From the NCBI RefSeq assembly GCF_028641065.1, contig NC_073401.1, positions 13,702,001 through 13,766,000 of the forward strand: 64,000 nt of DNA, written 5' to 3'. Position 1 is the first letter of the stretch. Each line of letters opens with the position of its first letter. This document shows, in pieces, positions 1-30,600 of this stretch. The position numbers and the translations under genes are program-made. Below the pieces are notes generated by a model that saw only the letters and a program-made list of their open reading frames with translations, searched no databases and had not been told where the DNA came from. This DNA comes from Leucoraja erinacea (lineage: Eukaryota).

Positions 1-304
1 CTGTCGATTCCTTCAATGGTGGGAGGTCGATAACCATGATGGACTGGGTATTGTCTACCAATTATTGCTACCTTCTTGGTTCTTGGGCATTTGAGTTACC
101 AAATCAGGCTGTGATGCAACTAGTCAGTATGCTCTCTACTGTACACCTGTACAAGTTCGATCAAGGTTTCAATGACATCCCTGTTTATGGTATCCTGCTG
201 TGAATAAAATAATTTTCATTTTATATACTAATCACTGCACCTCAAGCAGCAATTTATTTATTAAATGTGACATACTTTTAGATCCACCCGAGACACAAAT
301 AAAT

Positions 305-440
305 CAGTCTGAAGAAGGGTCCCGACCTGAAACATCGTCTGTCCATTCTCTCCATTGATGTTGCCTGACCCACTGAGTTTCTCTGGCACTTTGGGTTTTG
401 GTCAAGGTTCCAGCATCTGCATTTGCATTTTCTTGTGTCT
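305..440 (+). repeat. Penelope-derived terminal repeat fragment with decayed hammerhead motif
   Basis: CAGTCTGAAGAAGGGTCCCGACCTGAAACATC...GATGTTGCCTGACCCACTGAGTT matches the 3' end of the Penelope element at 15555-15645. Confidence 0.7.
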
Positions 441-1300: not shown

Positions 1301-1679
1301 TATCATTCAGTTGGACTTCTAATTGTAAGGCGAGCAATGGGGGAAGAGGAGTGGTCAAAAAGGAACACATTTAATTTTTCCAAAAGTAAATGGTAATTTT
1401 TCCCCCAATCACTAGCAAAATTGTCAACTGATATTGATGTGTTGTAAAAGATTGTAAGATAACTCACAATTGTAATGATCTTAAAATTATGTACTATAAC
1501 ATTTTCCCCCCTCCCCAAAAGTTGGTCACCTACTGTCCTGTCTCACCTCTCCCTCTCTCCTCTTTATAACGGCCATCTTCCCTTTCCACTCTCAGTCTTG
1601 ATGTAGGGCTTCAATCCAAAATGTCCACAATACCCCCCCTCCTCCCACAGATGCTTCATGACCTACCGAGTTTACTTTA

Positions 1680-4703: not shown

Positions 4704-4821
4704 TTAGGATTTTTTGTATTCAATCCGTTCTACTTTTACATCATCAGAGATCAGTTGATAAACATAAGTGACTACTGTGGATGCCTGAATGTCCATTAAT
4801 ACGAATGAAGGGATGATATTT
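4704..4821 (-). CDS. VPS29: VPS29 last coding exon
   Basis: Acceptor AG at 4822-4823; encodes [38 protein letters not shown]. Confidence 0.95.
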
Positions 4822-7800
4822 CTGGAAGAGAGAGTATAAAACTAGTTAGTCTCTATATTTTTTCTCTATGGCAAGCAATGCACAAAAGTTATTAGTAACA
4901 AACCTCTCTGGAAACTAAAAAATAACTTTGTGTTGAACTTCACAAAGGCATTTTGTGCCTTTTTGTACTTTGCATGTTATAAACACAAATGAATACTAAA
5001 TCCAATATTAAATATTCAGCTTTGTACCATTAATGTATATGAAATCGTTATTGACCTTGTTTTTAAATGAACAGACATTATATTCAATTCTGTGCCACAG
5101 ATATTTATTGCTTGATTGTAAACAGGCCCTAGGGCCCATCAAGTCCTTACCGACCACTGATCACCCATTCACATTAGTTCTCTCATCCCATTTTTGCATT
5201 CACTCCCTAGGGATAATTTGCAGAGGCCAATTAATTTATAAACCCACATGTCTTTGGGATGTTTGAGGAAACAAGAGCACCCGGAGGAAACCCATGTGGT
5301 CACAGGGAGAATGCACATTCCAGACACCACAGGGTTGGGATTAAACCCGAATCTCTGGTATTGCGAGGCGTCAGCTCTATCAACACTGTGACGCTCCTCA
5401 TTTTATTGGTTGCATCTTCTGAACTTTAAATGAATGCACTAATCCATCTCTTCCAATTCAAACATGTACGACCAGATCCAGCAGACTTTGGTGTCAACTT
5501 ATGAGTTGATGAATCAGAGTTTCACTATTCCAGTGAAACAAAAATTATGAATGAAAATTAATTACGAATGAAAAACCAAAGTTCTTGGAGAAAACCCACG
5601 CGGTCATGGGGAGAATGTACAAACTCTGTACAGACAGCACCCATAGCCATGATCAAACCCGGGTCTCTGGCACTGTAAAGCATCAACTCTACCGCTGCGC
5701 CATGTGATTATTATTTTCCCCAAATAATTATTTTCATAATGCCATTATTTGATACTATATCTGAGTACTTACCCTTCCAGTGCATTTCCAGCACCTGTGG
5801 CTGAACCTGGGTTGATATAGAACTTGCTCTCCTGTTCAAAGGCCTCAAACTTGTGCGTGTGCCCAGATATTAGGATATCGACATCGAGCTGCCGTTGTAG
5901 CAGAGCCAGGCTGGTCATGTCACCCCATGGGATCACCTGGTGACCATGGATCAGTCCGATTTTGAATTGGCCCACTGTTACCACTTTCTGCTCAGGATAA
6001 TTCAAATTCTGAAATTAAGATGAGAGCGGTTACATATTTAAAATAGTCTTAGATAGATACAAAATGCTGCAATAATTTAGGGTGTCAGGCAGCATCTCTG
6101 GAGAAAATGGATAGGTGAAGTTTTGGGTCAGGACCCTTGTTCAGATAGATTTTAAAATCAACTTTACAGTTGCAGCCCTACAAGAACTGATCTTTACAAC
6201 TACAACAACACTGATTAACATGCAGAGATGCTAAGAATGTTACTCCTGCTCCACATCATCCACTGTTATTAGTAAAGGATTCACTGCCATATTTCTTTGG
6301 TCAAATACACATTTGGTGAACTACCAACAGAAAAATATATATTTTCACAGACCAAGAATTAATGTCTCCAAGGTAAACTGGGGGGCATGAGTAGAATGGT
6401 TGTCACATGTACCTCAGTACAGTAAAATTACTTTCTTGCATACAGTTCAGTAAAATTCATACTATGCATAGGCACAATTGTACTTCAGTAAAAGAGTTTA
6501 GTATAGTAGATTATATCAAGACACTGAATTGATTTATCAATGTGATACATTTATCTTCCTATTTAATGTAATTAATTGTTCAGAGATAATTAATTTCTAC
6601 AGCAGCAAAAATCATAACATTAAAACAGTATCCCTTACCTCATCAAAGTCTCCTCTGACAATATGGACATCTCCAGCCAATGTTTTAAGATAATCATAGC
6701 TCTCTTTGGTGCAAAGATTGCCTGTGCACAAAATGTGCTGGATCTTACCCGGCACCAACAGCTTCTTGAACTTGGCTGGCAACGTATTACAGCGATGAGG
6801 AATGTGAAGGTCTCCCAGTACCAGCACCAACTGCGAGAAAAGCAGAAAATAAAAGTGCTAATAAATTATTCCGCACATGCAAATTAACAGAAATATATGC
6901 CATATCTTATGATTTTATTGTAAAGTTTCATTTGTCAGCAGTCAAATAGCTATAATGAACAGAATATATAGCTTCATGAATGTAATTCAGAATTTGTTAG
7001 TAACTAAAGAGTGAATAAATCGCACAGCGCTTACAAGGCTCCATTTGGCAATGATTAAGGTCAAGTCTTTTCATCCCCTCAATTTCGAGGATAAAAGTAA
7101 AAATAGTTCAGCCAGACACAAGTTCTTTGTTAACAAAAACATGCTTCGAAATTCATGTTTACAGATCACACAATATATCTTGCATACACTTGATTAGGAA
7201 ACAGATTTTTGAAGCCAATACTTCTGAGGATGTCACAGTGGCGCAGCTGGTAGAGCTACTGCCTCACAACGCCAGACACTCGGGCTTGATTCTGACCACA
7301 GGAGCTGTCGGTGTGGAGTTTGCATGCTCTCCCTGTGACCACATGGGATTCCTCCCACCTCCCAGACATGCAGGGGTGTAGGTTAATTTCTGCTGTAAAA
7401 TTGCCCAGAGTGTGCAAGGAGTGGATGGAGAAAATGGGATAACATTGAACTCTGCAAATGGCCGATCAATGGTCCCGTGGACTTGGTCTGCCAAACGGCC
7501 TGTATCCATTCTGTATACCTCACCTAAATTAAACTACTGCAGTTTACATTTCACATCTGCCACAGGCCAGGCCCATGATTTTCTTTGTGAATAGTTTTGC
7601 ATCATGCTTACTTTAATCAACTTGTGGATATCTAGTTAGCAGTTTTAACGTTGTGTTTAAGCCATTTCCTCTCTTTCTGCAGGCCAACACAAATTCATTT
7701 CTAGTTTCAGCACTCCACAAAAGACCTTTGTCAGGATTTGTTCATCAGACAATTACACCACATGAGCTGAATGTAATAGTTATCCTTTTACAGTGAGAAT

Positions 7801-10162
7801 ATTTATAGTTGCCAGGTCAGGCTCAAGAATTTTAGCATCAGGAATCTTGATTTGGCATCTAATCTCAAACGGCTGTGATAAAAGTAGTTCCGTTTCTTAA
7901 TATGACATTTGTCCAATTTTCACGGTTGACAAAGCAGGATTTCCAAATAAAAAGGCAGTCTTTTTTTTTTAACATTGTGCTCGGTTTTAGTTTCGTCTGT
8001 AGATTAGTAACTCTCAGTTTAAAGGTGTTCAGAGTGTGTCAATGGCCAAAATTGCCAATTAATCATACTCATATTCATCCCATGGCTGTGTACATTTTAC
8101 CCGATCTGCATACAGTCCAGGCAAAAATCTAGACCATGCCTTAAAATAAGATTCTAAACCAATGGAAATTTCAGTTACAGTTATGGAAACAAGGTGCTAT
8201 CTCTATTTCCTAAATTAAGAACATTTGAAGACATGGGGAAACAGATAACAGTTGCTAAGTCTGAGCAGTCTGAAGAAGGTGTCTGCGTTTAGTCTCGCCG
8301 ATGTATAAGAGTCCACATCTTGAACAACAGATACAGTAGATGAGGTTGGAGGAGGTGCAAGTGAATCTCTGCCTAACCAGAAAGGACTGTTGGGGTCCCT
8401 GGACAGAGTCGTGGGAGGAGGTATAGCACAGGTGTCGCATCTTTTGCGGTTGCAGGGGAAGGTACCCGGGGAGCGGTTGGTCTGGGTGGGAAGGAATAAG
8501 TTGCAGTGGAAACGGTCTCAGCAGAAGGCGGAAAGGGGTGGAGATGGAAAAATGTGGCTGGTGGTGGGATCCCGTTGGAGGTGGCGGAAATTTCGGAGGC
8601 TTATTTGTTGTATGCAATGGCTGATGAGGTGGAAGGCAAGGACTAGGGGTACTCTGTCTCCATTACGACTAGGGGAGGGGGAGCAAGGGGTACCGAGGAG
8701 ATACGAGTGAAGGCCTCATCTATGATGGGAGAGGGGAACCCCCATTCCCTAAAGAATGAGGACATCTCAGATGTTCTAGTATGGAACACCTCATGTTGGG
8801 CGGACATGCGGCATGGACGGAGGAATTGGAAGTAGGGGATAGAGTCTTTGCAGGGGTGCATATCTTTCATTGATTGTTCTTTATCTCTCCACATCACCGT
8901 CTATATCTCTCATTTCCCTTATCACTAACCAGTCTGAAGGGCCTCGACCCAAAACGTCACGCATTCCTTTTCTCCAGAGATGCTGCCTGTCCCACTGAGT
9001 TACTGCAGCATTTTGTGTCTATTATCAGAATGGTGTCAGATTAGGAAAAGGGGGGGGGGGGGGGTGCAACGAGACCTGGGTGTCCTGGTACATCAGTCAC
9101 TGAAAGTAAGCATGCAGGTGCAGCAGGCAGTGAAGAAAGCAAATGACATGTTGGCCTTCAATACCAAGAGGATTTGAGTATAGGAGCAAGGAGGTCTTAC
9201 AGAAGTTTTAAAGGGCCCTGGTGAGATCACACCTGGAGTATTGTGTGCAGTTTTGGTCTCATCATTTGAGGAAGGACATTCTTGTTACTGAGGGAGTGCA
9301 GCATAGGTTCACCAGGTTAATTCCCAGGATGGTGGGACTGATATATGATGAAAGAATGGATTGACTGGGCTTATATTCACTGGAATTTAGGATGAGAGGG
9401 GAACATAGAGAAATATATAGAATTATTAAGGGATTGGACAGGCTAGAAGCAGGAAAAATGTTCCTGGTGTTGGGGGAGTCCAGAACCAGGGGTCACAGTT
9501 TAAGAATAAGGGGTCAGCCATTTAGTACTGAGATGAGAAAAAACGTTTTCACCCAGAGTTGTGAATCTGTGGAATTCTCTGCCACAGAAGGCAGTGGAGG
9601 CCAATTCGCTGGATGTATTCAAGAGAGTTGGATTTACCTCTTAGGGCTAATGGAATCGTGATATGGGGAGAAAGCCGGAACGGGGTACTGATTCTGGATT
9701 ATCATAATCATATTGAATGGCGATACTGGCTCAAAGGGCCGAATGGTTTACTCCTGCACCTATTTTCTATGTCTCCACCTGACATTATGGCCACTTATTC
9801 TGTTCTGTCTGCGCAGAATACAAATATTTCAGGATATTTAGGCATTTCATAGATGGAAGAGGCGGTTCCTGGACGATATTATAAACCATAAACATTGGTG
9901 CAGACTCACTTAAAACATACAGTGGATGTTTCTGGACGGTCTGTCCAAACATCCTCAACCCCGTCCCTCCCTCCAGCTGATGGACATCACATGACCATTC
10001 CAAGCCCACTGCAGGCCCCGAGTCACCAACCACCGGCCCCCGACCATTGGAACCTGCTGCTCCGTCACCAGCTACACGTTAGAGACTCTATGCACACCCG
10101 TTATTAAGCTGAGGGGACAAAACGCAATCAATCAATCGACCAGCCGACTACGGACTCACCAT
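4704..10162 (-). CDS. VPS29: VPS29 retromer subunit, whole spliced gene model (182 aa)
   Basis: Exons 10160-10162 (ATG only), 6639-6830, 5773-6008, 4704-4821 give 549 nt with consistent phases and GT-AG junctions. Protein [15 protein letters not shown]...GHTH...[10 protein letters not shown] is near-identical to vertebrate VPS29. The first-exon position is less certain. Confidence 0.95.
5120..5705 (-). mobile_element. Two tRNA-derived SINE copies (about 5120-5395 and 5575-5705) in VPS29 intron 3
   Basis: Both carry the GAAACCCA(T/C)G(T/C)GGTCA..GGGAGAATG core. Confidence 0.7.
5773..6008 (-). CDS. VPS29: VPS29 coding exon 3
   Basis: [30 protein letters not shown]...GHTH...NPGSATG; acceptor AG and donor GTAAGT; 236 nt. 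Confidence 0.96.
6639..6830 (-). CDS. VPS29: VPS29 coding exon 2
   Basis: [14 protein letters not shown]...VRGDFDE; acceptor CAG and donor GTAAGG; 192 nt, phase 0. Confidence 0.96.
7228..7535 (+). mobile_element. tRNA-derived SINE, near full length
   Basis: A box TGGCGCAGCTGG, B-box-like GGCTTGATTC, core GTGTGGAGTTTGCATGCTCTCCCTGTGACC. Confidence 0.8.
8255..9020 (-). mobile_element. Penelope-like element fragments (GIY-YIG and RT end on minus; terminal repeat on plus)
   Basis: [30 protein letters not shown] (GIY-YIG) and [14 protein letters not shown]; opposite-orientation terminal repeat at about 8860-9020. Confidence 0.85.
9021..9775 (+). mobile_element. CR1/HER1-type LINE 3' portion
   Basis: [37 protein letters not shown] and the 3' tail GGGCCGAATGG..CTCCTGCACCTATTTTCTATG. 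Confidence 0.9.
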
Positions 10163-10300: not shown

Positions 10301-11245
10301 TGAGTTATAAATTCAAAACACACCACACAATTCCAACAGTACTTCCAGAAACTCTAGGATTCATTGTGCACAAGCGGGGAAATTAATAAGTAGATACAAA
10401 GAAGTGCAGGTGCTGTTTGCAGAAAAATACACAAAGTGCATAAGATCAGGCAGCATCTCTGGAGTAGTTGGATAGGTGGCATTTCGGGTCGGGACCCTTC
10501 CTTCAGACTCAATGAAGAATTAGTAATTTGGCTAATTTTCTGAGGTAATGGACAATTCCTGAAGTCAATATATCTATATTTTGCATTCTGTATTTTCCCC
10601 ATTGCTCTATCAATTTTACTTGTTTGAACTGATTGTATCCATGTTTGTATCCACATCTGATGTTTGACAAGCATGAAAAACATAGCTTTTCACTGAACCT
10701 AAACTGTCTTTCATGATAGTCCACTCATTTGTTCACTGTCAGAATCATTTCATTCTCTCATTGCTCAAATCATAGCACAATGAAAGGAAGTAAAACTGCA
10801 CAATTAATACTTTCCCAGCTGCGACACTTACCTTTGATTTGGCTTTCTTCAAGCCTAGTTGCCCACAGTAGTCGCAGGATAATGGAGTGACTGGGAATTG
10901 GTAATGTAATTGTACCACTGACATGGACAATGTAACTGAGGTATTTTCCTTCTCAGTTGGAGGGAAGGTTTCCCAGCAGGGCAAAATTCACATTGGCAGT
11001 AGCTTTTATGGTGATTATAACCATGAATTTGTTACGGAGAATTTTTGAAATAGACTGTCAGTTGCTTTCATCAATTTGAAATTTATGCCCGAGCTTCAAA
11101 ATTAAAAAATGTCAAAGGTCATAAAAATTGCAATTGATTGATTTGGTGCACGGACTGGAGCAAAGATTATAGAGGATAGGATCCTCTAGGATCTTTGGAC
11201 TGAAGTAGCCACAATAAACATAAGCACATATAGTAATGCAAACTT

Positions 11246-11789: not shown

Positions 11790-12160
11790 TTGTGCACAAA
11801 GGGACTGCAGATGCTGGGTATACACTGAAGATAGACACAAAATGCTGGAGTAACACACACAGCAGAACAGTCCTCATTTCTGGAGAGAAGGAATGGTTGA
11901 ATTTTTTAGGTCAAGAACCTTCTTCAGACTGAGAGTCAGGGGAGAGGGTCGAGAGATTTGGAGGGGTAAGGTGTGAAAATGACAGATCAAATCAGTTGAG
12001 AATCAAGGAAATGTTCATTGTTGGATAAGGGGAAGGTGACAAGCAAGACTTACAAACTAAAATGAATCAGAACAGTGAATAGTCGGAGAACTAGGGTGGG
12101 GAGGGACGGAGAGAGAAGTTGAGAAATGAGAAAGTGAGGAAATCAATATTTGCAAGGTAT
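11790..12160 (-). repeat. Penelope 3' end and terminal repeat fragment
   Basis: AGACACAAAATGCTGGAGTAAC...CCTTCTTCAGACTG, similar to 15555-15780. Confidence 0.7.
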
Positions 12161-12480: not shown

Positions 12481-12613
12481 GGGGCTGGGGCACCCAGAGG
12501 AAACACAAGATTAATCTTCAAATCATTGCACTGACTCGCTTGTTGAAATCAAGGTTTGTTGTTTGTGTTGCCAACAGGTGAAACACGATCACATCAAAAC
12601 AGCTGCCGGCACC

Positions 12614-12647
12614 ATGAAATGCATAATTCCCGCAAACAACCTGAGAG
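12614..12647 (+). CDS. RAD9B: RAD9B coding exon 1
   Basis: GCACCATG context; [11 protein letters not shown]; donor GTAGAT. An AG at 12576-12577 suggests an upstream non-coding exon. Confidence 0.85.
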
Positions 12648-15600
12648 GTAGATTTCAAAATATTTATATTAATAGCACAAGTATGTTTAATCGTGAAAAA
12701 TGCTATCTATACCGCAGTTGTTTATAGGAATATAATATATATTCTTCAGTAGCAGATTTAACCAGTCTTTTATTCAAATCACTTCGGATGCGAAAATCAT
12801 AATTTTGTTTTATGATTTATTAATTCTCTAAACCTTCCATGAGCTATATTTTAAATAAGGTATGGGGCACTCTTGGCCTTTTGGATCCGTTCTCAGAATT
12901 GTCAGGTCATATTTTATTTTTAATCACTATTAAAGATGAAATCTTAGGATTTAATTATCATATGCTTTCTTTACTTCTGATATTATAACATTGGCAGGTT
13001 TTCCCCTTTTGTATAAGGCAAAATATTTAATTAACAGTCAGCTGTATTTGCTATAATAAACGTTTCTTTGTTATCATATGTGGCTTTGTTTGTTTCATAT
13101 TACAACAACTGAGTGCTGGAAAATGAACCAGTAGATAATGTTTAATCATGAAAAATGCTATCTTTCTTTGCAGCGTTTGGAAAAGCAATCCATGCCTTAT
13201 CCAAAATTGGCGATGAGATATGGCTCGATCCTTTAGAAAATGGTGTAAGTTGTGGATATTAACAATATGTTTGTGACACTGACGGTATGGGAAGGTAATT
13301 CAAGTTGGATGAAGCATACCCTCTCCTAATGTTCTGATTTTAATCTTTTACTATAGAAACATGATGATAGAAAGTAGGTGCGATAGACCACCAGGTCCGA
13401 GACCCGCACCGCCATTCGCTCATGGTTGGACACAAACAGACACACTTGGTAGACACTGTGTAAAGCTTTGCCTCCCCTCTATACCTCTACACCCCTCTCC
13501 ACTACATCGTGTCTCCTGGGGGAAAAAACCGGTACAAATTCTAGATTCCTCTCCGCCCCAATCCAGTAAATCGATTGTAGATCACTCAAAACAAAATATA
13601 GGTCCATATCCCTGCCCTGGACAGATTGGACCATTTTTTAGTCTTAAATATGCCCTTTCTGCTTCCATTCTCACCATAAATTAACCCCCTCTGGGTGAAA
13701 AGTCTTGCAAATCTTTGGCTTATTCTGAAACTATGTTAGTTCTAGCCTTCATTGGGAACTCCTGGTGCATCCACCCGATGGTCACGATCTTGTTTTTCAA
13801 TGAGATCGCCTCTCATTGATTAAACTGCCGTAGAGTCACATCAACCTTGTCGAAGATGTCAATCCCCTCAAATTAATCTTTCCTTCGCTGCTGCCTCCAG
13901 GGCCATCCTTTCAGGAGATTTGCAAACTGTATATTCTTTCATAACTGTAACATGCAGCAAGCTCACTCAATCCCCCTAGCATAAAGGCCAAAAGTCCATT
14001 GGCTTCCTAATTGCTTGCTGCACAATTTCAGTGTCATTACTAAAATCCCTTAATTCTAAAAAATTCTAATTGCAAAATGGTTATTCACATCAAAGTGAAG
14101 AACTGAACTTCACCATGAGTCAGGACATTAAAATAAGAAATATGGGGCAGCAGTGTCGCAGCTGGTAGAGCTGCTGCTTGACAGTGCCAGAGACCTAGTT
14201 TCGATCCTGACCTCGAGTGATGTCTGAGCGGAGTTTGCATGTTTTTGCTGTGACCATGAGGGTTTCCTCCAGGTGCACCATTTTTCCTCTACATCCCAAT
14301 CATGTACGGGTTTGTAGGTTAATTAGCCTCTAAATTGCCCTTAGTGTGTAAGGAGTGGATGAGAAAATGGAATAACAGAACGTGAGAACAAGTGATTGAT
14401 GGCGTGGACTCGGTGGGCTAATGGGGCAGTTTCCATGCTGTGCCTCTTTAAAAGAAACAAAACATTTTTTTTTTTTAAAGATCTTTTTTGATTAGGCATT
14501 TTTGATCATTTAAATATTTACAGCATCACTTCCTTAAATAGGAATCATTTAATTTTCTGCACCTTGAATATGAATCTCTTTACTTATAGTACCTGTATAT
14601 TCTTTGATTTAACTTGTCAAAGTGTTTTGAATATTTTTCAGCTATATTCTAGAATAGTTAATCATTTAATGTTTTGTTTTGCAGCTTGCACTGAGATCGG
14701 TTAATTCTTCTGGATCGGCATATGCTTGCTTTTTATTCTCTCCCCTCTTCTTCCTGCATTACAGCAGGGGTAACAAGCAGCAACAGGAAACCTCTGAAGC
14801 TGAGGTTGTACCCCTCAACTGTAAGATGGCAATTAAGGTATAGTTTGGGTTTTCCGAAGCTAAAGGCTACAACATAGAAATATAGAAAATAGGTGCAGTA
14901 GTAGGCCGTTCGGTCCTTCGAGCCAGATGATCATGGCTGATCATCCAAAATCAGTACCCCATTCCTGCTTTTCCCCCATATCCCTTGATTCTGTTAGCAC
15001 CAAGAGCTATATCTAACTCTCTCTTGAAAACATCCAGTGAATTGTCCTCCACTGCCTTGTGACAGAGAATCCCTTATTCTTAAACTGTGACCCCTGGTTC
15101 TGGACTCCCCCAACATTGGGAACATTTTTCCTGCATCTAGCCTGTCCAATCCCATAAGAATTTTACGTTTCTATAAAATATACTCTTATCCTTCTAAATT
15201 CCAGTGAATATAAGCTCATTCGGTCCATTCTTTCATCATATGTCTGTCCCGCCAACCCGGGAATTAACCTGGTGAACCTATGCTGCACTCTCTCAATAGC
15301 AAGAATGTCCTTCCTTAAATTAGGAGACCAAAACTGCACACAATAATCCAGGTGTGGTGACTCCAGGGCCCTGTACAACTGCAGTGGGCCCATTTTGCTC
15401 CTATAACCAAATCCTCTCGCTATGAAGCCCATCATGCTTTGCTTTCTTCACTGCCTGCTGTACCTGCATGCTTACTTTTAGTGACTGATGTACAAGGACA
15501 CCCAGGTCTTGTTTCACCTCCCCTTTTCTTAATCTGACACCATTCTGATAATAAACACAAAATGCTGGAGTAACTCAGCGGGACAGGCAGCGTCACTGGA

Positions 15601-18600
15601 GAGAAGGAATGGGTGATGTTTCGGGTCAGGATTCTTCTTCAGACTGATGTCAGGGGAGTGGGCGGGACAGAGATAGAATGTAGTCAGACTTCAACAGTAA
15701 GACTGGTTGGAGAACTGGGAAGGGGGAGGGGTTGGAGAGAGAGGGAAAGTAAGGGCTATTTGAAGTTAGAGAAGTCAATGTTTATACCGCTGGGGTGTAA
15801 ACTACCCAAGCGTAATATGAGGTGCTGTTCCTCCAATTTGTGCTGGGCCTCACTGGAGGAGTGGAGGAGGCCCAGGACAGAAAAGTCAGATTGGTATTGG
15901 GAGGGGGAGTTAAAGTGCTGAGCAACCGGGTGATCAGGTAGATTAAGGCGGACTGAGTGGCGGTGTTCAGCAAAATAATTGCCAAGCCTGCGCTTGGTCT
16001 GGTCGATGTACAGAAGTTGACACCTGGAACAGCAGATACAGTAGATGAGGTTGGACGAGGTGCAAGTGAACCTCTGCTTCACCTGAAACTGCTGTCGGGG
16101 TCCTTGGATGGAGTCAAGGGGGGCGGTAAAGGGACGGGTGTTGCATCTCCTGCGGTTGCAGGGGAAAGTACCTGGGGATGGGGTGGGAAGGGACAAATTG
16201 ACCAGGGAGTTGCGGAGGGAACGGTCTCTGCAGAAAGCAAAAAAGGGGAAGATGGGAAGATGTGGCCAGTAGTGGGATCCCGTTGGAGGTGGCGAAGATG
16301 TTGGAGGATTATATGCAGTATGCGGCAGCTGAAGCGGTGAAAGGTGAGGACAAAGGGGACACTGTCATGGTTACAAATGGGAAGGAGGGGGAGCAAGAGC
16401 AGAGCTGCGGGATATTGAGGAGATCCTAGTGAGAGCCTCATCTATAATGGAAGAAGGGAACCCCCATTTCCTAAAGAATGAGGACATCTCCGATGCCCTG
16501 GTATGGGAAAACCTGGGCGCAGATGCGGCGTAGACGGAGGAATTGGTAGGGGATAGAATCTTTACAGGATGCAGGGTGGGAAGAAGTGTAGTCTAGATAG
16601 CTATGGGAGTCAATGGGTTTGTAGTAGATGTCGGTCAATAGTCTGCCTCCTGTGATGGAGATGGTGAGATCCAGAAACGGTAGAGAGATGTCGGAGATGC
16701 TCCAAGTGAATTTGAGTGCAGGATGGAAATTGGTCATGATGTTGATGAAGTCAGTGAGTTCTGCATGAGTGCAGGTGGTACCATTGATGCAGTCGTCAAT
16801 GTAGCGGAAGTCGAGTTCAGGGATAGGCCCAGTGTACGTCTGGAACAGTGATTGTTCCACGTAGCCTACAAAGGCCGGCATAGCTAGGGCCCATGCGAGT
16901 GCCCATAGCTACGCCTTTCATTTGAAGGAAGTGGGAGGAGTCGAAGGATAAGTAGTTGACGATAAGGACCAGCTCTGCCAAGCAGAGGAGAGTATTAGTA
17001 GACGGAAATTGGCTGGTTCTGCGGTTGAGGAAGAAACGGAGGGCTTTAAGACCTTCCTGGTGGGAGATGGAGGTATAGAGTGACTGGACATCCATAGTAA
17101 AGATGATGGAGTGGGGGCCTGGAAAACAGATATCAATGTAGATTAAGTTCTTTCCTAAACATTCTGATAATAATCTGCTTTCTTGTTTTTACCACCAAAG
17201 TGGATAACCTCACATTTATCCACATTGTACTGCATCTGCCCTGCATCTGCCCACTCACGCAACCTATCCAAGTTACCCTGCAGCCTCATAGCATCCTCCT
17301 CGCAGCTCACACTGCCACCCAACTTTATGTAATCCGCAAACTTGGAGAATTTACTTTTAATTCCTTTCTCTAAATCGTTGATACATATTGTAAATAACTG
17401 GGGTCCCAGCACTGAGGATCTAATTCCTTTTCTTTGCTTCCTGCCAACCAGTCTATTCATGTCAATACCCTATCCCCTTTTACCCTCACATGTTTAGCAG
17501 GGGTGACTAAATAATGTTCCTGCTGAAATAGAATTTAAACGAGATTTGTGTAAGTTTCTCAGTACACCCTGATTACAATGCGTTGAGGCAAGTTGGTAAG
17601 TGCCTAGCAATGTTATGTTAATATTGTTTCCTTCGTGTTAGCTGACGGGCAACATGTTCATGTTGGTTTAATGTATGGTCTGTAATTTATAATGTCCTAT
17701 GATCTTTTATTCTGTTTAGGTTGAATAATGATCACAAAAGATTATTACCACACTAAATCTTGGTATGAAATATGGCATTGGCTGAATTTTGAAAAAAAAT
17801 CTTTATGTAACCCCTTATTTTTAAGTTTGCAAACATAATATCATGGTGTCTAAATTCAAACTATAATATGAATTTTGACAGTAAATCTGCATATGTTTTT
17901 TTTCCGCAAATCACCTCCCCACCCCCCGGCAGATTACTTGGGTTTTTTTGATATTGGATTTCATCAATTTGCTGTTTTATCTTTTGCGCTACATATTATG
18001 TTAATTTTCAACAGAAGCTGAGAATTGAATAACTTCCCATTTAAAAATAATACTAAATTGGCACTTTGAAATACTATTTATGCCCCAAATAATGTTATTT
18101 ATCTTTACAGTTTCATTTCTTAACAATTTTGTGCAAGTTGCAATGTGACATTATTAATTAGAGCTTTTAAAATAAAAATCATTGAATTATTTGAACAAAA
18201 GATTTGATTTAAGTGCAAATCTCATGATCATGTTTTTTAGCTCCTTTTAAGAACATTCAGAAAATTGTGTTTGTTATATATGCTCTCACCTGTGTAGTTA
18301 GTGTTAGTGATATGACTGGATCTTGAATTTAATCTTTTGGAATGAGAAATATCCTATGTTTATGATTAAGAGGTCATTGTTTTTATTACTATTGTAACAG
18401 ACTTCTTGGCCTTTTTTGTTCTTTTACTCAGTATGTTCTTCCAATGTTTCGATGCCTAACTACATTAGAGAGGAATGTGGAGAAATGCAAGATTTATGTA
18501 AATTCACAGGACTGCCGAGTTGTTTTTCAGTTCTGCTGCAAACACGGTACAAAAACAAATTTACTAAATGTATCTTGAGATTTCATGGTGCCATTTAAAA

Positions 18601-21600
18601 AAAAAAATGTAATCGTCCTGATAGAGGAGATGGGGCCATAGCTAAATAGCTCATGTAAAAGAATAGTACCTCAGCTCCCACTCCAATAATCTATTAGAGC
18701 ATTGGAAACGATTTTGTGCTCCAGCCTTTGGAGGGAGAACTGAGCTGCCTTCTGATTTGAAGGTGAAAGTGCTGTTAACTGTGGCATGGGTGAATCTGTA
18801 GAACCTACCTGACAGTTTAATATGACATGTCATGTGCAAATTGGCACTAGGGGCGGGGAGCATTTGCTTATTGATACTCCGAAATGTCAGCCTCGAATAT
18901 CCACTGGGGTCTTGAGTGCTGCATAAACTAATGGCCTTCTAATGATACTTCCAGAAGTACATCATTGGCTATGTAATTGAGCTTTCTGACAGTGTGAAAG
19001 CTACTTTGGCTACAATTTGTTTCTGTAAGTCCTGGAGAAAAAATAATAATTCTCTGCTCACAGTCTATAAGAGTGTGGCAGCTGTCAAGTGATGCATTTT
19101 ATTTTATTTTTTCACCTGTTTTTGTTCCGTGACTTTCTATTTTGCTGGTTACAGGAATCACTAAAGCTCACCATTTGGCATTTCAAGAGTGTGAGACCCT
19201 ACAGGCTGTGTTTTCGAAACAGTTATGCCCAAATATAGTGCTATCTCATGCAAGGTAGGAACAATCATGCACTACAAGTGGAATGAACTATAATGGGTGG
19301 AAATAAATATTACTATTATGAAGAAAATTTAAGCCAAGTAAAGGGCAAACTCCATGCGGCATTTTACTAGTTCCATTAGATTGGAAATTTGTAAAACCTA
19401 AAAATTCAGGCACACCACTATCTCAAAAGGGCCTGGCACACAAATACTAAGTTAACAATCTCTTCACTGACACGGCTGTAAATGTCGAGGTGTGCTATCA
19501 ATGCTGTTACCTTCAAGACAGAGCCTGACCCTGTTGACTGTTCTGCTGGTTGACAACTGAAACCTGAAAATTAAATTAAATTGCAGATGCCAGAAATCTG
19601 AATTAAAAACAGAGAATGCTGGGAATTCTTCAACTTGAAATGTTAGCTTTCTGTTTATCTTCCTTCAGATGCAGCCTGCCCTGCTGAGTATTTCTAGTAT
19701 TATCTGAATTGTGACCATGCCAGTGCTCCCTATAGGTACTACATAGAACAATACCTCGCAGGAACAGGCCCATCGACCTATAATAGCCGTACTGAATATG
19801 ATGCCACATTAAAAATATAAAAATGCCTGCAAGTCATCCATTTCCTTCTGTTCCCTGCATACACATGTGCCTATTCAAAAGCCTCTTAAATGCCCATATT
19901 TTATCTGCCTCACTGCCACCCCTGGCAGCCTGTTCCAGGCACCCTCTGTGTGTCAAAGAAAACTTGTGTACACACTTTAAACTTTGCCCCTCTCACCGTC
20001 AACCTAAGCCCTGTGGTCTTTGACATTTGCACCCTGGGGGGGGGGGGGGGGGAGGTTCTGCCTGTCTACCTTATCCATGCCTCTCATAATTGTATACGCT
20101 TCTATCAGATTTCCCTTCCAATGCTCAACCTCCTATGCTCCAGAGAAAACAATCCAAGTTTGTCCACCTTCTCCTTGTAGCTAATACTATGCTGATTGAC
20201 CCTGCTAAGTAAATATATCTTTTTCTGGTTTAGCTTTTGCTTTCCAGTAATTGCATTTTAATGCTGTTTACCTTTAACTTGGGACTAAGTTCCCCTCTTC
20301 CTCCTTACATTAAGGGCCACCGTTATTAAGTATTAATGAAGTAACAATGAAATGTGAAAGTAAGTGCTCTTGAAAATAATGGAAATTGTGTTGGAAAAAT
20401 ATGAAAACTATGACACGTGAGAGAATAAATGAAGGAGACCTGTCTTGGGAATCAATAAATACTTCATTAAAATAAAATGATGCATGTGATTATTTTTTTT
20501 AAGGCTTCTGGCTGACGTTGCCATTCATTTCCCAATGTCTCAAGAAGAAATTACATTGACTGTAACTCCTCTGAAAGCTTTCTTCAAGAGCTATGTAGAT
20601 GAAGACAAAGGTAATTCGATCATCACCACAATGCAAGTGGAATAGAGTTCAATTATCAGCTAAAAGAGATAACGGTCTTTTAATTCTCTCCTTATGTAGA
20701 CTTTTCTTGTTTATATACAGATTTCTCAAAAGTAATGCAAACTGAAGTGAGTTTAAAACCCAATGAGTTTGAATATCTGCAGATTGGAGTTGACGCTGAG
20801 ATAACATTCTGCTTGAAGGAGCTTAGGGTATGGAACTTAATATTGTTATTGTATATTGACGTTTTTGAATTTGGTGTCACAAAATCACATGAAATTCAAT
20901 CCAATGGATCCATATCAGATCAATTTTCAGTATGTCAGTATAATTATTTTAATTATAAATTAAAGGATTAAATACACTAAGAATATTTATGTAAGGTTTT
21001 TTCATAAAGGATTTAATCTTTTCATAAAAACAGAGGCAATTGTGATTTCTTAAATTCATCTACACTTCCTCCCCGATATGATTGGGAGTATGAAAGCCAG
21101 ATTTATCGTATAAGCTGTTTAGTTCATATCTTGGGTTTTACAAATAATTTAAATTAAAACTTTGAGATGGTATTTTAGGGACAGTTTCTAACCATCCTAT
21201 CAACAACTAGAGAGCGGTCCTGAGCTACTATCTACTTCAGTGGTTCTTAACCTGGGGGGTTGTTTGGGTCTTTACCGGAGACATGAAGGGGTCATAAATA
21301 ACATATTCATTTGTTGAGCCCCTTTTTAGGAACCTAATAAAGGTACATACCACATACAGTATTTTGTTCGCGTATGCGCGTAGTATACCAAAAAGGTTAA
21401 GAGCCACTGATCTACTTCAATGGAGACTGTCGGACTATCTTTTATCAGACTATCTTGCACTAAATGTTATTCCCTTTTTCATGTATCTGTATACTGTGGA
21501 CGGTTCAATTATTCATGTATAGTCTTTCCGCTGACTAGTTAGCATGAAGCAAAGAGCTTTTCACTGTACCTCGGTACTTGTGACAATAAACTAAACACGG

Positions 21601-24600
21601 CATTATTTTTACTGCATATATAACCAACAGTACTCGGAAGGTTCATGCTCAAAGATAGTCGTGTAGCTTTTAATTGTTTTAATAGGAGTTTGCCACGGTA
21701 AAATGTGTATTGAAGAAAAAGCCACATCCAAGGTAACTCAAAGACAGTTGTTTTAATTGGATGCATTGAACGTTAACGTTACATGTTGTGGTTTACATTG
21801 TACAATCGATAAAACATAAGAATACACTACAGACTGTAAATAAGTGGTATGCACCTTGTCTTATGGGATTCTGTAAAATAAAAATATCTAGGACATTTTA
21901 ACCTTATTACTTGGAAGTGTCAGCATGCGAGTCCAGGCTATTTTTGTACTTTGTTCAACTTCCTACAGTGTTGCAGGTGACACATTTTAAGGTAATTGGT
22001 GCCTCCACGGAGTTAATCAAACAGAAGTTAACGCAGAGGACATCCTGTGATTTCCGGGTGGGGGGGGGAAGGAGGGGGTAGAAATTAAATTTGGAGTTAG
22101 TTGGGTACACAGTAACGTCAGCTGAACTTGAGATTGATAAAGATGGTAATTATTGCTGACTGCATGAAGCTGGTTGCTGACATTTGTGGAGCAGCTCCTA
22201 ATGAGAAAGCTCTGAAATAGAAAGTCCGCATGAAGCATTGTGAATAAGGTTAAAATTAGGCTTTGTATTACATGGTAGGATTTGTGATATTCCGTAGTAT
22301 ACTTTATATTGAGAGTACTGCCTTGCGAGTGCTTTTAATTATGTAGGTAATGTCATTTTAATGAATACCCACAGGAGTAAAATAACAAATGTTTAACAAT
22401 TCCTGGCTTTTTCATTAATCTTCTCTGCATGTTTCTAACTGATTCATGATATTTAATATTTTTTGTTCAGAACTGAATCATTGCAGATTATTTTCATCTT
22501 CCACTCTGACTTCTCAACTAAAGAAGTGACTGGTTTGGGAATGTTAGGTTGGCACCTTGGATATATTCTTGATGCCCAGATAGATCCTTGTATGAGAATT
22601 CTACAATGGAATTGCTTTTGGTGATAGTTAGGATGTGATTGAGAATAAAATTGTGAAAAGAATAGATCTGGTAAACAAAATCATGGGAGGAATAGATTGG
22701 GTGAATGCATAGAGTCTGTTGCCCAGAGTAGGGGAAGCACCAGAGGTTTAAGGTGAAGAGGGAAAGATTTAATTGGAATGTGAGAGGTAACTTTTTTACA
22801 CAAGGAGTGGTGGGTATATGCAATGAGCTGCCGGATGAGGTAGTTGAGGCAGGTATTATCATAACAGTTAAGAAACATTTGGACAGGTACATGGATAGAA
22901 TATGTTTTGAGGGTTATGGGTCAAGCACGGTCGGGTGGGACTACTGTAGATGGGGCATGTTGGTCATTGTGGGCAAGTTGGGCTGAAGTACAGTTTCCAC
23001 GCTGTATGACTTTGACTCTATAATACTCATTTCAGCATGTTTGAACATGTGCAGTTTAGGCAATTGGGACTGTATTGTATCATTCTCTCGTGTTCCTTCA
23101 TTTCCTGTAGTTCTTTCTCAACGTTTTGTGCTTTCGCTTTTTAACTCGTTCCTGATAAATGGTGACAAAGGCGGCTAAGCCAAAACTATGTGTAACTTTC
23201 GACTTAACTTCTTAATAATATATATTGCTTGTGACAACATAGTCTTCACTGTAGGTACATTGTGTAAGTATTCTGGACCAGAATCACAGAGTGAGAGAAT
23301 CATGTTTTTTGCTCAGTTGTAATTTTGGGCCAAGATTAGTGCCCCAGGGAACGTCCACAGAATGGAATTATTATGACGGCTGCTAAGCCAACAATTTGTT
23401 TGTGGCAGTACACCAACTTCGCCCCTTTCTGTTCATAAAAATGAAAGATCTTGTGTGTTCCACATAAAACAACATGAACCCTATCAGTGTCAGCTTGCAC
23501 CATGGGCCAGGCTGCAGACTGCAAAATCTTGAATACGCTTTGTCTGCTTGTCTATATGAAAATGCCTCTTTTTGTGCAGACATTGAAAAGCTTTTATCAC
23601 CAGGGAAAGTCTGGTTGAAGCCATCTATACAAAAAGTAAGAGACGTGGTCGCTGTCAGCTATGATTGTTTTGTCCCTTCCTTGTTTTGAAATTGCAGTGT
23701 TGGCATATTTAAGTGACTACCTCTTTGGTGAAGATAGGTAACAGAATTTGGTGAAGGATTGGAGATGAACATACTGAGGAGGGGGAAGAAACGGGGAGAC
23801 TGGGGTGGTGGGAGAAGGTTGGAGAAATGTGTACACACTGGGGTGAGGGTGCAGGGGGAAAGGGGGCGGGGGGGCTAAGGAGAGTTACTTGAAATTAGAA
23901 AATTCAATGTTCATGAGTTCATCAAGAGACTGTCTGGCCTGCTGAGTTCCTCCAGCAATTTGTGTTTTGTACAATTTAAGCCTTGAGTTTTTGAAAGAAA
24001 TAACAGCACATTTACAAGTTAAAACATTTTTGGAATGATATAAATATTCCTGCTGAATAGAGTTCTATTCTTTTGATTAAAAAAAAAAATAAATAAATTA
24101 TGCCTCTAGCATTATTGATGTCAAGAAGGGGCCTTTACTTGGAATAAAAGGCTCCTTCTCCACATAAAAGATGCATCCAAAGGGGCACAAAATTAATTAA
24201 AAAAATTAAAAGAGAGCCAGAACTTTCTAATTTAGAACAGACTTGCAGCCTTCACTCTCGTGAAAACACATTATCTGTAAATAATGCACTTTATAATGTC
24301 TTGAATAACATTCCAATAATGGGTGTGATGCTCTTTGACGAGAGCATAAGCTAGGTGATATATTGGACAGCAAGTAATATATCTTTGTTGGAACTGTGTC
24401 ATTGAAGAAGGTGAGATTGTTTTGAAGTTAGCTTGTGGGTTGGCAAATGTTACTGACTTTTCTCGCCCTCTGGATAAATTGGAGAAGCTGTTTAATCTAC
24501 GATTCGCATACAATATTGTGCAATTTGCTCTTAGAATAACAGTTATTAATGTTTCCAATTTACGTTTTAGAAAGTTTAAATACTATTTAAATTAATACTT

Positions 24601-27600: not shown

Positions 27601-30600
27601 CCTATGGCAATAAGAGGTAAGAAATTGTGGATAAACCTTTGATTATTATAATCCAGTTAACTGAAATATCCTTTGATGCTTTATTTCCCCAACTATTATT
27701 TCCTTTTGTTTGTGTAATGCAGCATTTGTAGTTCCTGGTTTCTACTGTTGTTTTGTTCTGTTTAACTGTTAATATGTTCACCCTCTATTGTATAGGAAAT
27801 GTTTTGATTAATATTGTTACTTGTGATCCTGAAAACCTTGCTTGATCAAATCATGCTATACACGATTTGATTGATTCAATCAAAATAGTATGATTTAGAC
27901 ACAATGCTGGAGTAACTCAGCAGGTTAGGCAGCATCTCTGGATAGAAGGAATTGGTGACGTTTCATGTTGAGACCCTTCTTCAGACTGAAATTCAGGGGA
28001 GAGGGGGACAGAGATAAGGAAGTGGATTTTTAGAAATCCACTCCTCTGTACATTTGGTACATTATTTTCCTGACTTTATTAAAATTGTTGACCAATCTGA
28101 CCTTTTTTAAAAAATCTGACCGTTGCCCAGCTGCTGACGTTACAATAACAGTGACATTTATTCTTCTGGTAGAAATTTTCTTTATGATTTCAAAAATCCA
28201 CTCCTCTATAAATTTGGTGAATTATTTCCTGAGATATTTACTAATATTTATCACCAAACTGACATTTTTTTAAAAATAACGGTTGCCCAGCTGCTGACCT
28301 CACAATGCCTTTCCTTGTGGCCCCCCCCTCCCCAACGCCGCTCTGGATTAATGCAGCTGCTGTCAACGCGCATGCGTAGTTTTCCACGAGGTACGTTAGC
28401 CCACACCCCCGTTCTTCAAAACGCGCAGAAAGAGGCGTCGCTCACAGCTGCTCGCTCACAGCCGGAGGCCACCGGCTTGCTTCTGAATCCTCTCCGTCTC
28501 CCCCGCCCGATCGTAGAACATGGTGGCGGTAGCCGTTATTGTCGCGCGGGGCACGCAATGAAAAGGTGGCACTGGCGGCCATTACTCCCTCTATGAGAAA
28601 CCCGTGATTCCTCCGTTGATCGCAGGGACACGGGGAATCGTAACGCGAAAGCTGCAGAGACTCTCCACGCCGCCCGATGTCCAGAGAGCTGCCGATGCTC
28701 GCTGCCCTTTCGCAGTCGGCCCCGTCCGAGCCGCCCGCTCGCCGAGTTCAAGTCCGCCCTCACCTTCTCTCCCCATCCTCCTCCCCACTACCCCCTCTCC
28801 CGCTCCCTACCTCCTCCTCTCCCTTCCTCCCCTCCCCTCCGCCCCCCCTCCTCTACCCCCCCCCCCCCTCATCTCCCGCCCTTTCCTCTCCCCCCCGTCC
28901 CTCCCTCCCAACCCCTCCCCACTCTTCCCCCTACCCATCGCCCTACCTCTCCCTCCGTTCCCTCTCCTCCCCACCCCCTCTTTTCCCCCCCACCTCTTCC
29001 CCCTTTCCTCTCCTTCCTCTCCCCTCCCTCTCTGTCTCCGCCCCTCTCTGTCTCTGGGGTCAGGAAGCATCTGTCGAGAACATAGACAGACTTCTTCAGA
29101 CTGCTGAAATCTGCTCCACTTTGAAATGTAAATTAACTGAGGTTACAATCTCGTATTCCAAAGAAAACAACCCCTAGTTCATCCAGGCTTCCTTCATAAC
29201 TATAACTTTCTTATCCAAACAACACTTTCATAAATTTTCTCTGTGTCATCCAGTAATGATAGCCCACAACTGTATGCAACATTCAAACTGTGGCCTATCC
29301 AGTTTTATGTATAGTTCAAACATTATCGTCTAGACAGACACATCAGTGAATCAAATATTATCTTGCACTAAATGTTGAACCCTTTATGTGCACTGTGATT
29401 GTAATCATGTGTAGTCTTGTCTTTGACTGGATAGCATGCAAACCAAAGCTTTTTACTGTACCTCAGTACATGTGACAATAATAAACTGAACTATAACATT
29501 TATCTACCAGCAGTGATGATCAGCCAAACATTCAGACTGAAGATGTGAATGAATTGATTAATGAAGAAATTAATTCACCAGCAATACCCATAGTAACCAC
29601 TACACAAAAAGATGGTCGGTCCCAAATTCAGAAAAGAAAGGACCACTGCAGGAGCCCCAGATTTACAGAAGATCTAAATCAAAATGTCAAGATATCCTCT
29701 GTGTTTAGCAATTACTTAGCGGATGGAGTTGAAAATGAAATGGTGCCTGGAACACCACCAAATAAAAAGGTAGAGTATTGGTTTTTTTAAATGAGATGTT
29801 TTTGTTGAAATAAACTTAACATTGAAATGCAGATTAAAATAATGTACTTTGGACTATTTAGCATTATACTGCAGGTAACCTCTACATTTGATTTAGTTTC
29901 ATGTTTCCCTAACAGAACCATGCTTCCTTTCTCTCATGTATTAGCCTCCACAGGGGGGTAGGGGTGGGTATTTAGGTCTCACAGATGGATAGTCACATTG
30001 GGAGCACTGAATGCAGTAAACTAGGTTTGGGGAGGTACATGTGAAACTTCACCTAACCCAGAAAAGCAAGCTGCTGGGGTCCCATGATAGATATAAACAT
30101 GATCTGGTGATGTTCAACATGAGCATCTCCCGCTGGGAAACTCATTGCAAGAGGCCGTCATATCTAATCACACTTAAACACTCAGCTCTGTACTGACAAG
30201 GAGCAGATGACTGCATGCTGGCAATAGAATCACTTAGTAGGAACACTGCAGTGGATCTAATCATATGCATCGTACTCGGTAATGAGCGTAGTCCCCGATT
30301 TCCCAATGGGTAGTTGTAGTAGGAGAGGGTGCGGATTAGGGAAAAAGCAGAGGATGCCCATTCCCAATCACTAGGAACTGGAGACAGGGGTTAGGACAGA
30401 CTCCTGCACGATTACAGGGAAAACAGTGGCAGCCTCTACATGTAATTGAAATATTACATTATTTCTCCTACTTTTCCTAAGCAGTACATGAAGGTAGGAA
30501 TAAAAAGTTTCCTTGCAGGTTAGAAATATGGCTGATGATCTGCACTTTGCCACAGGTGGGGCAGATGGTACACGATGAGGTAGCTCAATAGATTGCTTAG

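Follow-up and report, generated by a model that had tools for sequence, protein, structure and literature searches.

A dispersed Penelope-like repeat of Leucoraja erinacea whose consensus has the pattern of a minimal type I hammerhead ribozyme

What is the short repeat that closes a decayed Penelope-like element on contig NC_073401.1 of the skate Leucoraja erinacea, and is it a working ribozyme? We analysed 64,000 nt of this contig (assembly GCF_028641065.1, positions 13,702,001 to 13,766,000, forward strand; the window), in which a preliminary description had recognized a dispersed Penelope-derived repeat with a minimal hammerhead ribozyme as its consensus. With good confidence, we consider that the repeat is the pseudo-LTR of a Neptune-like Penelope element, that its consensus has the full minimal type I hammerhead pattern and probably needed a dimer or the protein of the element to cleave after GUC, and that the mutated copies here are likely inert.

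The focal copy (15612..15645, minus strand) is a decayed minimal type I hammerhead with 12/12 core positions and 2/4 helix II pairs, located 110 nt past the stop of a reading frame. Specifically, C3 is at 15642, G8 at 15637, the extra A at 15635, G10.1 at 15634, C11.1 at 15623, G12 at 15622, and C17 at 15615. The predicted cut lies between 15615 and 15614, and the helix III palindrome is broken at 15617. The 3' part of the pseudo-LTR (15555..15611, minus) contains a pyrimidine stretch that, by prediction, base-pairs with the catalytic core, followed by a conserved hairpin, and the copy ends before an optional tail of ~35 nt. At the other edge of the core is an initiator-like TCAGTC (15642..15647, minus) whose A, at 15645, precedes the core by 3 nt; the same letters can be read as a CAG splice acceptor behind a pyrimidine tract. 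A pyrimidine-rich, subfamily-specific 3' UTR (15646..15755, minus) connects the repeat to a 5'-truncated, frameshifted ORF (15756..17130, minus) with an RT core followed by a C-terminal GIY-YIG endonuclease, inside which there is a Cys pair. The CX4CxxC-type linker has lost its third Cys at 16.1 kb and is intact in the copy at 8.3 kb and in P0001. The element is flanked by a 14-bp target-site duplication (downstream copy 15541..15554, inside a CR1-like LINE; upstream copy 17160..17173; both minus) and lies antisense in a RAD9B intron.

The Penelope origin proposed earlier holds, as the repeat follows the RT and GIY-YIG frame, and a bamboo-shark Penelope-type protein matches 17095-15786 at 46-74% identity by tblastn, a further match falling at 8285-8852. 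In three DNA runs, contig records span from the ORF end to the core. No Pfam family was matched by the ORF pieces of the window alone; the GIY-YIG call derives from relatives and falls below the curated cut-off in 2/3 of them. A second ORF-linked copy (8266..9020) combines the 5' half of the motif (plus), an inverted RT/EN piece (8283-8854, minus), and a pseudo-LTR (8874-9020, plus) that carries a core deletion. Overall, the hallmarks of endonuclease-bearing (EN+) Penelope-like elements are present: 14-bp and 15-bp duplications, inverted pieces, and the ~35-nt tail in loose ends and four copies. Both ORF-linked copies are 5'-truncated, and no intact or tandem element was found within the 64 kb. 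The two same-site insertions could also reflect a single composite Penelope-CR1 unit. We consider two separate events more likely, given 79% similarity and differing 3' UTRs between the Penelope parts against 87% similarity between the LINE parts.

An iterated nhmmer search seeded with the 15.6-kb copy identified 16 related segments in the window (best E in the reversed-window control, 0.23), and a 17th fragment at ~8266-8283 is the 5' half of the motif, giving about one repeat per 4-6 kb. All ten copies listed previously were recovered at their places and strands, with offsets of at most a few bases. The best-preserved solo copy (27899..27989, minus; antisense in a RAD9B intron) has an intact palindrome, 3/4 helix II pairs, and 12/12 core positions, in line with the earlier statement that 27954-27988 keeps the core. 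Similarly, helix II is preserved (4/4 pairs) at 10476-10508 as had been claimed, within a tailed solo copy (10400..10510, minus) that starts 3 nt before the core, has a core insertion, and has lost U16.1. Also with 12/12 core positions are a tailed solo copy (304..440, plus) with a broken palindrome, a start 4-5 nt before the core, and an 8-bp candidate duplication, and a short copy (50949..50998, plus; antisense in a PPTC7 intron) that starts 3 nt before the core and has 1/4 helix II pairs. G12 is lost from a solo copy with a tail and a long part of the 3' UTR (11800..12080, minus, upstream limit approximate) and from a solo copy with ~60 nt of 3' UTR and a 15-bp flanking duplication (39628..39775, minus; sense in a PPTC7 intron). 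A solo copy that starts at the core (6059..6148, minus; sense in a VPS29 intron) retains 10/12 core positions, and an older, heavily decayed copy (1592..1673, plus) retains 8/12. The copy at 29057..29103 (minus) starts 4 nt before the core and is deleted from helix II to the cut site. Cores are missing from an older-subfamily inverted junction with a tail (19560..19701) and from a 3' part at 23895..23963 (plus), and the segment at 30599..30670 (plus) is a 3' end and tail only. A head-to-head inverted pair of the older subfamily (61967..62119) has a CUGAUGA core in its plus-strand copy. As suggested earlier, many copies are intronic: 8/10 of the listed copies are flanked by coding exons of VPS29, RAD9B, or PPTC7, where the status of three depends on an inferred ATG-only first exon of VPS29. 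The repeat copies have decayed mostly at CpG, with 24/64 CpG positions changed and a non-CpG divergence of 7-16% in eight copies.

The consensus drawn by eye in the preliminary description equals the majority line of 11 aligned copies. A covariance model built on these recovers all 11, one further copy at E 0.012, and two chance-level matches. Majority letters in public sequencing data (one RNA and three DNA runs) move the focal copy to the consensus at 15633, 15632, 15629, 15628, and 15617, with the consensus letter at 15628 reaching only 46% in one DNA run; contig depth in these runs is not copy number and was not used as such. The consensus comprises a complete minimal type I hammerhead, namely CUGANGA, an extra A, helix II, GAAA, a palindromic ACGU, and GUC. 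It has 12/12 of the core positions in CUGANGA, GAAA, and UH, as do 5/11 copies. A single base separates positions 9 and 10.1, and the G10.1-C11.1 pair is formed in 10/11 copies. ACGU at 15.2/16.2 is intact in 3/11 copies, and G16.2 is the letter in 66% of RNA reads and makes up 54-56% of the DNA depth. Helix I is about 2 bp, as described earlier, with U-A and G-C as its only pairs. Helix II is also present, but not as the 5 bp with a 2-nt loop first drawn: the folding model disallows this, and the stem is instead GGGU/ACCC around a loop of 4 nt.

The minimal type I architecture is supported by feature-by-feature agreement with the published min-HHR consensus and by a minimal-hammerhead descriptor, which the consensus passes and which matches once per 1e8 nt of first-order Markov sequence. 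Consensuses built with one, two, or three copies left out pass in 10/11, 40/55, and 107/165 cases. No copy in the window passes on either strand, consistent with the earlier remark that none is perfect. Could the likeness nonetheless be chance in an ordinary repeat end? In its favour, the folds are unfavourable, no Rfam hammerhead family matched the window or the best copy alone at E up to 10 (5 and 9 weak matches to other families), and covariation is missing. Specifically, the helix II covariation put forward as a test in the preliminary description was not found among window copies: 6 helix pairs across 11 decayed copies gave 0 compensatory changes, with all 500 shuffles reaching the observed value. 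This absence neither confirms nor refutes the hammerhead because it is expected for neutrally decaying copies. Cross-family covariation was likewise not obtained from the 13 motif-frame proteins kept of 32 found with a profile of the translated repeat (19 dropped), which belong to the same family. Against chance, the descriptor null is ~3e-6 for a 130-nt repeat on both strands, and the motif sits exactly where Penelope elements carry it. A chance likeness is thus strongly disfavoured and scarcely credible.

The skate repeat is of the known Penelope minimal hammerhead type, its average sequence matching the class described by Cervera and De la Pena (2014). Of the four min-HHR features given there, the consensus has all except shown covariation. 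Shared traits are the type I core, the one base between A9 and G10.1, the G10.1-C11.1 pair, the palindromic 15.2/16.2 without a loop 3, the site 3' of the RT-EN frame, the predominance of solo copies, and close opposite-strand pairs; the 4-bp helix II with its tetraloop is also that of an Acropora Neptune row. Published Penelope-like hammerheads have helix I of 2-6 bp, so the 2 bp of the skate repeat are among the shortest, a length also found in the Culex, Oikopleura, and four Drosophila rows. Families with a 2-bp helix I (their Fig. S3) and thousands of solo copies were already on record, including 4,000-9,000 such motifs in coelacanth and Xenopus. The very high copy number and intron richness emphasized earlier are seen in the window, but both are ordinary for this class. 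Cartilaginous fish are absent from the 56 rows and Table S1 of the 2014 survey, and a density of one per 4-6 kb in this 64 kb would exceed its vertebrate counts if it held genome-wide.

Within Penelope-like elements, the closest clade appears to be Neptune (Craig et al. 2021, PMC8557442), given the C-terminal GIY-YIG with an internal Cys pair, the CX2-5CxxC linker, the tail, and the inverted 5'-truncated piece adjoining the pseudo-LTR. Nematis shares a linker motif with this clade, and, unlike the Neptune description, no (TA)n targets were seen in the skate window. The repeat also resembles PAc of Anolis carolinensis (Frangieh et al. 2024, PMC11167929) in its hammerhead within a pseudo-LTR, an optional tail (30-40 nt in PAc), AT-rich targets, and the lack of RNA-seq ends at the cut site. 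However, PAc is of the Poseidon clade, with a start codon at stem II and demonstrated activity, whereas the skate element has a Neptune/Nematis-type linker and an ORF start that lies outside the window. Non-LTR retrozymes (Cervera and De la Pena 2020, PMC7229834; 10.64898/2026.07.22.740005) similarly have type I hammerheads in short pseudo-LTR-related repeats. They were reported in the single chondrichthyan genome surveyed by Li et al. (2026, 10.64898/2026.07.22.740005), whose families may include the skate repeat. Retrozymes are tandem units with complete hammerheads; the skate repeat occurs as dispersed monomers, with no array in 13 TRF rows and 0 complete motifs, and we rejected this assignment. 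No relatives with DNA context were found in viral contigs by protein (25 candidates, 0 confirmed) or with two patterns, or in prokaryote genomes. Three metagenome matches (56-59% GC) lack the other features of the repeat and were taken as chance. The literature search, with subscription papers and Repbase/Dfam entries mostly outside it, yielded no description of the skate family.

By analogy with other Penelope elements, the endonuclease would nick AT-rich DNA, and reverse transcription would begin at an internal position of the RNA, at one or the other end of the tail, and proceed toward the 5' end. Most cDNA products would halt at or near the hammerhead, yielding solo copies of 90-130 nt, and a few would extend into the ORF. 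In RNA of the founder element, two ACGU palindromes could pair to form helix III, a dimer state predicted to be unstable in naked RNA. Folding favours a structure that would sequester the core. For helix II, ViennaRNA predicts a probability of 0.005 when the full consensus is folded; with the eight real downstream segments, the values span 0.001-0.56. A dimer of two hammerheads comes out at -6 to -13 kcal/mol, less stable than an alternative dimer at -21.5. Such instability, tied to the 2-bp helix I and the competing fold, would restrict cleavage to the RNP of the element or to a tandem transcript. For PAc, both protein assistance and internal priming were shown (PMC11167929).

The same short helix I and competing fold could instead mean that this subfamily had a founder ribozyme that was degenerate from the outset, a hammerhead by descent that failed to cleave even while the element was active, and that the element spread without it. 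We regard both this history and this cause as possible but not favoured. The 2-bp helix I has a predicted pair probability of at most 0.02 and the core is sequestered in the predicted folds; hammerhead mutants left PAc insertion in vitro unimpaired, Naiads without canonical hammerheads still reach high copy number, and 8/9 predicted Xenopus dimers did not cleave. However, none of the 12 core positions is lost from the consensus, which also has the palindrome and the G10.1-C11.1 pair; the difference in the older subfamily falls on the free N7 position; the stem is intact in a common loop variant; and weak cleavage was seen for a Drosophila motif with a helix I of 2 bp once helix III was extended.

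The genomic copies in the window are likely inert debris. In PolyA data, there is no place on the repeat, cut site included, where a fifth of the RNA molecules begin or end, and reads on it are strand-symmetric (6615 vs 6425). Core-bearing intronic copies are without strand bias (4 sense, 5 antisense). If intact copies cut host pre-mRNA, they might have been purged or put to use by the host. Consistent with this, 4/4 sense intronic copies have a core change while 3/4 antisense intronic full-length motifs keep 12/12 (Fisher P 0.071), and an inverted pair is present at 62 kb. But the contrast is not significant, the changes in 3/4 sense copies include loss of G12 at a CpG, solo copies have no dimer partner, and there are neither descriptor-passing copies nor read ends at the cut. 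We therefore consider host pre-mRNA cleavage very unlikely.

The 5' ends of several copies raise another possibility, compatible with our preferred explanation: the conserved 35 nt may also serve as an internal RNA polymerase II core promoter, with transcription beginning at the A that lies 3 nt upstream of the core. In that case, solo copies would be run-off cDNAs of promoter-started RNA, and cleavage would remove a capped leader of 31 nt. Both proposals are tentative, and we think each more probably wrong than right. With a start 3 bases before the core, helix I could not exceed 3 bp. Of the 13 core-bearing copies, 7 share no upstream sequence past 1-5 nt, and 7/17 of all copies start in the 5-nt zone before the core (P 3e-7 to 2e-3 under assumed rates). 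In 3/4 runs, the loose-end consensus extends as far as the A and is lost at the following base (place 15627). Given hammerhead geometry, the match of TCAGTC to the Inr TCA+1GTY has a chance of 0.001, and that of CGACC at +18 to +22 to the revised MTE CGANC a chance of 0.002. An internal Inr/DPE promoter is known in D. virilis Penelope, and by eye TCAKTY occurs within 15 nt upstream in 9/56 published Penelope-like hammerheads vs ~1.3-2.0 expected, a figure that relied on guessed base frequencies and non-independent rows. On the other hand, the motifs were sought after the fact. The DPE matches at 4/5, a level reached by a third of random hammerheads, and +27 to +29 at 1/3. The C before the A is retained in three or four of the seven short copies, PolyA reads have no start pile-up, and the consensus sequences are Drosophila-derived, with the DPE said to be rare in humans.

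The pyrimidine tract and CAG could be a 3' splice site of the kind found in D. virilis Penelope, with an upstream exon lengthening helix I. Six long copies have an upstream pyrimidine fraction of 0.72-0.82, five of them ending in CAG, and the D. virilis intron (416-491) ends at the 5' arm of helix I, with C3 at 496. But short copies keep the AG and have no common upstream exon, and no such joint occurs among the 15 listed from RNA reads, which contain 277 more. We judge a splice site improbable, and less probable than a promoter. In its broadest form, the promoter proposal is that the hammerhead overlaps an internal Pol II core promoter, with the Inr at the 5' arm of helix I and an MTE-like motif in helix II. 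The ribozyme would be the capped 5' end of the RNA and a self-decapping switch, solo copies would be full-length cDNAs of 90-130 nt from the start to internal priming sites, and the Inr-before-hammerhead layout would recur in other animal Penelope families. We hold this whole a shade more doubtful than its first step.

Overall, these results add an abundant cartilaginous-fish repeat to a known ribozyme class and carry the warning that most hammerhead-like matches in such genomes are defunct Penelope ends. Whatever hammerheads contribute to Penelope elements, they are dispensable for insertion in vitro, and no ends from them were seen in RNA data. Promoter overlap, if true, would account for why helix I is so short, where the 5' ends of solo copies lie, and what purpose the cut serves, and the high copy number makes it testable from sequence alone.

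All ten repeat copies listed in the preliminary description were found in the window, and the consensus proposed there is the majority line of 11 aligned copies. Iterated nhmmer searches recovered 16 segments (best match in the reversed-window control, E = 0.23), beyond which lies an extra half-motif at ~8266. A descriptor, written after reading the 2014 paper on minimal hammerheads of Penelope-like elements (PLEs), specified the core, an optional extra base, helix II of at least 4 bp, GAAA, a complementary pair, UH, and helix I of at least 2 bp. The consensus passes it, bearing out the proposed hammerhead architecture, and the null rate is 1 match per 1e8 nt of Markov sequence, or ~3e-6 per 130-nt repeat. 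When one, two, or three copies are omitted, the rebuilt consensus still passes in 10 of 11, 40 of 55, and 107 of 165 combinations. None of the real copies in the window passes; all 12 core bases are kept in 5 of 11 copies, and the palindrome (ACGU helix III) in only 3 of 11.

Helix II of the consensus has 4 bp and a tetraloop; the 5-bp version in the preliminary description is disallowed in folding and was ruled out. Compensatory changes were found among the window copies for none of the hammerhead pairs, and an Rfam search for a hammerhead found nothing in the window or the best copy. By every sequence test available, the motif belongs to the PLE minimal hammerhead class; the original observation was real and its identification correct, the kind being ordinary. 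Cervera and De la Pena 2014 (PMC4209133) already describe such a motif in PLEs, its location, how abundant solo copies are, and variants whose helix I has 2 bp; cartilaginous fish are absent from their 56-row alignment and Table S1. A 2026 preprint (bioRxiv 2026.07.22.740005) describes tandem retrozymes and PLEs across vertebrates, one chondrichthyan among them. A literature search, with repeat databases outside its scope, found no paper on this repeat family. The repeat would work like other members of the class, with cleavage here a prediction.

Four public runs were aligned to 15490-15850: three of DNA, from three coded organisms, and one of RNA, from a fourth coded organism that may differ from the species of the window. 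Each DNA run contributed between 141,217 and 152,915 contig records to this interval, and the RNA run 16,588 of its 7,335,232 reads. Among the 40 of 103 variant rows listed, the majority letters of the runs shift from the focal copy toward the consensus. Among the same rows and across the four runs, G16.2 accounts for 66% of the reads in the RNA run and 54-56% of the depth in the DNA runs, the two helix II guanines for 82-88%, and loop bases for 69-77% and 46-73%. Because 63 more variant rows lie beyond these 40, we make no claim of core invariance from the table. Nine copies taken together differ from the consensus at 20 of their 54 CpG positions, and at 24 of 252 elsewhere.

The focal copy (15612-15645, minus strand) lies 110 nt past the stop codon that ends a broken RT + GIY-YIG frame; this frame shares 46-74% identity with a protein from a bamboo shark. 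The element (~15555-17159) sits antisense to RAD9B in intron 3, inside a CR1-like LINE, and is flanked by a 14-bp duplication (15541-15554 and 17160-17173). In a second ORF-linked copy, at 8.3-9.0 kb, an inverted ORF piece adjoins the repeat; 8266-9020 reads as one unit in which half a hammerhead, broken two bases into helix II, and the inverted ORF piece are followed by a full pseudo-LTR. A ~35-nt tail occurs in four window copies and in the loose ends of all four runs, and the Cys motifs point to a Neptune or Nematis element. Duplication, tail, inverted piece, and Cys motifs are among the hallmarks described for canonical PLEs (PMC8557442).

Both ORF-linked copies stop at one shared position of the CR1-like LINE (15541-15554/17160-17173 and 9020-9032). 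Both LINE copies have an extra base there; it is missing from 95-96% of the depth in two DNA runs and from 54% in the third. Because the two Penelope parts carry 3' UTRs of different types, the shared end point may mark an AT-rich target that is preferred, or else a composite unit. Older-subfamily inverted pairs lie head-to-head at 61967-62119 and 19560-19701, and pieces of separate copies suggest that this subfamily had another set of helix I pairs, visible in no single copy. An isolated small remnant of a Penelope endonuclease lies within a RAD9B intron (29995-30063), and the flank of the 39.7-kb copy is duplicated locally ~200 nt off (39560-40100). Public predicted proteins P0189-P0218 and P0004 include read-through translations of the repeat or the Penelope frame, probably gene-model artefacts.

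Among the host genes, that with a Pfam Metallophos_2 match (minus strand; coding exons near 6830, 6010, and 4841, and presumably a first exon near 12188) we take to be VPS29. One exon of RAD9B (12581-31534, plus strand) is 92% identical to a protein of a sawfish, with 71-86% identity in other chondrichthyans; full-length identity to bony fish is 49-63%. This points to a cartilaginous fish as the source of the window, probably a skate or ray. PPTC7 occupies 52282-36056 (minus strand), and the gene starting at ~53 kb is, we assume from synteny and one exon, probably TCTN1. VPS29/RAD9B (12180-12650) and PPTC7/probable TCTN1 (52280-53520) are head-to-head pairs with GC-rich promoters, and within the latter interval a 31-bp unit is repeated 3.2 times (52670-52768).

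In 7 of 13 core-bearing copies, upstream likeness to other copies ends after 1-5 nt, and two of these seven have a candidate duplication at that 5' edge. Each subfamily has its own upstream region, so a few of these seven may be long copies without matches, but in six of them the upstream sequence is not rich in pyrimidines. The loose-end consensus at 15627 tracks the repeat as far as the A that lies 3 nt before the core, and in three of four runs diverges one base on; no copies begin at the cut site. These edges are consistent with a tentative and rather doubtful reading in which the hammerhead overlaps an internal Pol II core promoter, with transcription starting at this A. Counting this A as +1, TCAGTC in the consensus agrees perfectly with the Drosophila Inr, and CGACC at +18 to +22 does so with the first contact of the revised MTE (Drosophila-derived consensus, as in a review). 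The chance of these matches given the hammerhead geometry is 0.001 (Inr) and 0.002 (MTE), both tests being post hoc. The DPE fits at 4 of 5 positions, which carries no information, and +27 to +29 fit poorly. The K form of the Inr is TCAKTY. By eye, TCAKTY stands within 15 nt upstream in 9 of 56 published PLE hammerheads (5 TCAGTY) versus 1.3-2.0 expected, a post hoc comparison with guessed compositions. Alternatively, and less probably, the CAG before the core might be a splice acceptor, as at the matching place in D. virilis Penelope (Cervera and De la Pena 2014, PMC4209133).

The RNA run places the repeat in polyadenylated RNA, with strands nearly equal (6615 versus 6425 at the peak), and its reads include no site where at least one-fifth of molecules begin or finish. 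Over the endonuclease part (15756-15850) RNA reads are skewed ~2:1 between the strands, and over the pseudo-LTR even. According to Cervera and De la Pena 2014 (PMC4209133), minimal hammerhead monomers fail to cleave, and cleavage by dimers is weak. For PAc, the anole Poseidon element, PMC11167929 describes internal priming of reverse transcription at both tail ends, nicks at ATT, and a protein-assisted hammerhead dispensable for in vitro insertion.

In ViennaRNA models, the core of the full consensus pairs with downstream pyrimidines, helix II has a probability of 0.005 there but 0.44 when the motif is folded alone, and the double-hammerhead dimer is weaker than an alternative dimer. These models support an off state for the naked RNA; founder RNA would be cut after GUC only upon pairing of two palindromes or refolding by protein. 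Intronic copies show no orientation bias; the core is intact in none of four sense copies versus three of four antisense ones (P = 0.071, not significant), a hint that sense copies lose it more often. Fold z-scores of four real copies span -1.0 to 1.7. Overall, the genomic copies are best read as inert passengers within host introns.
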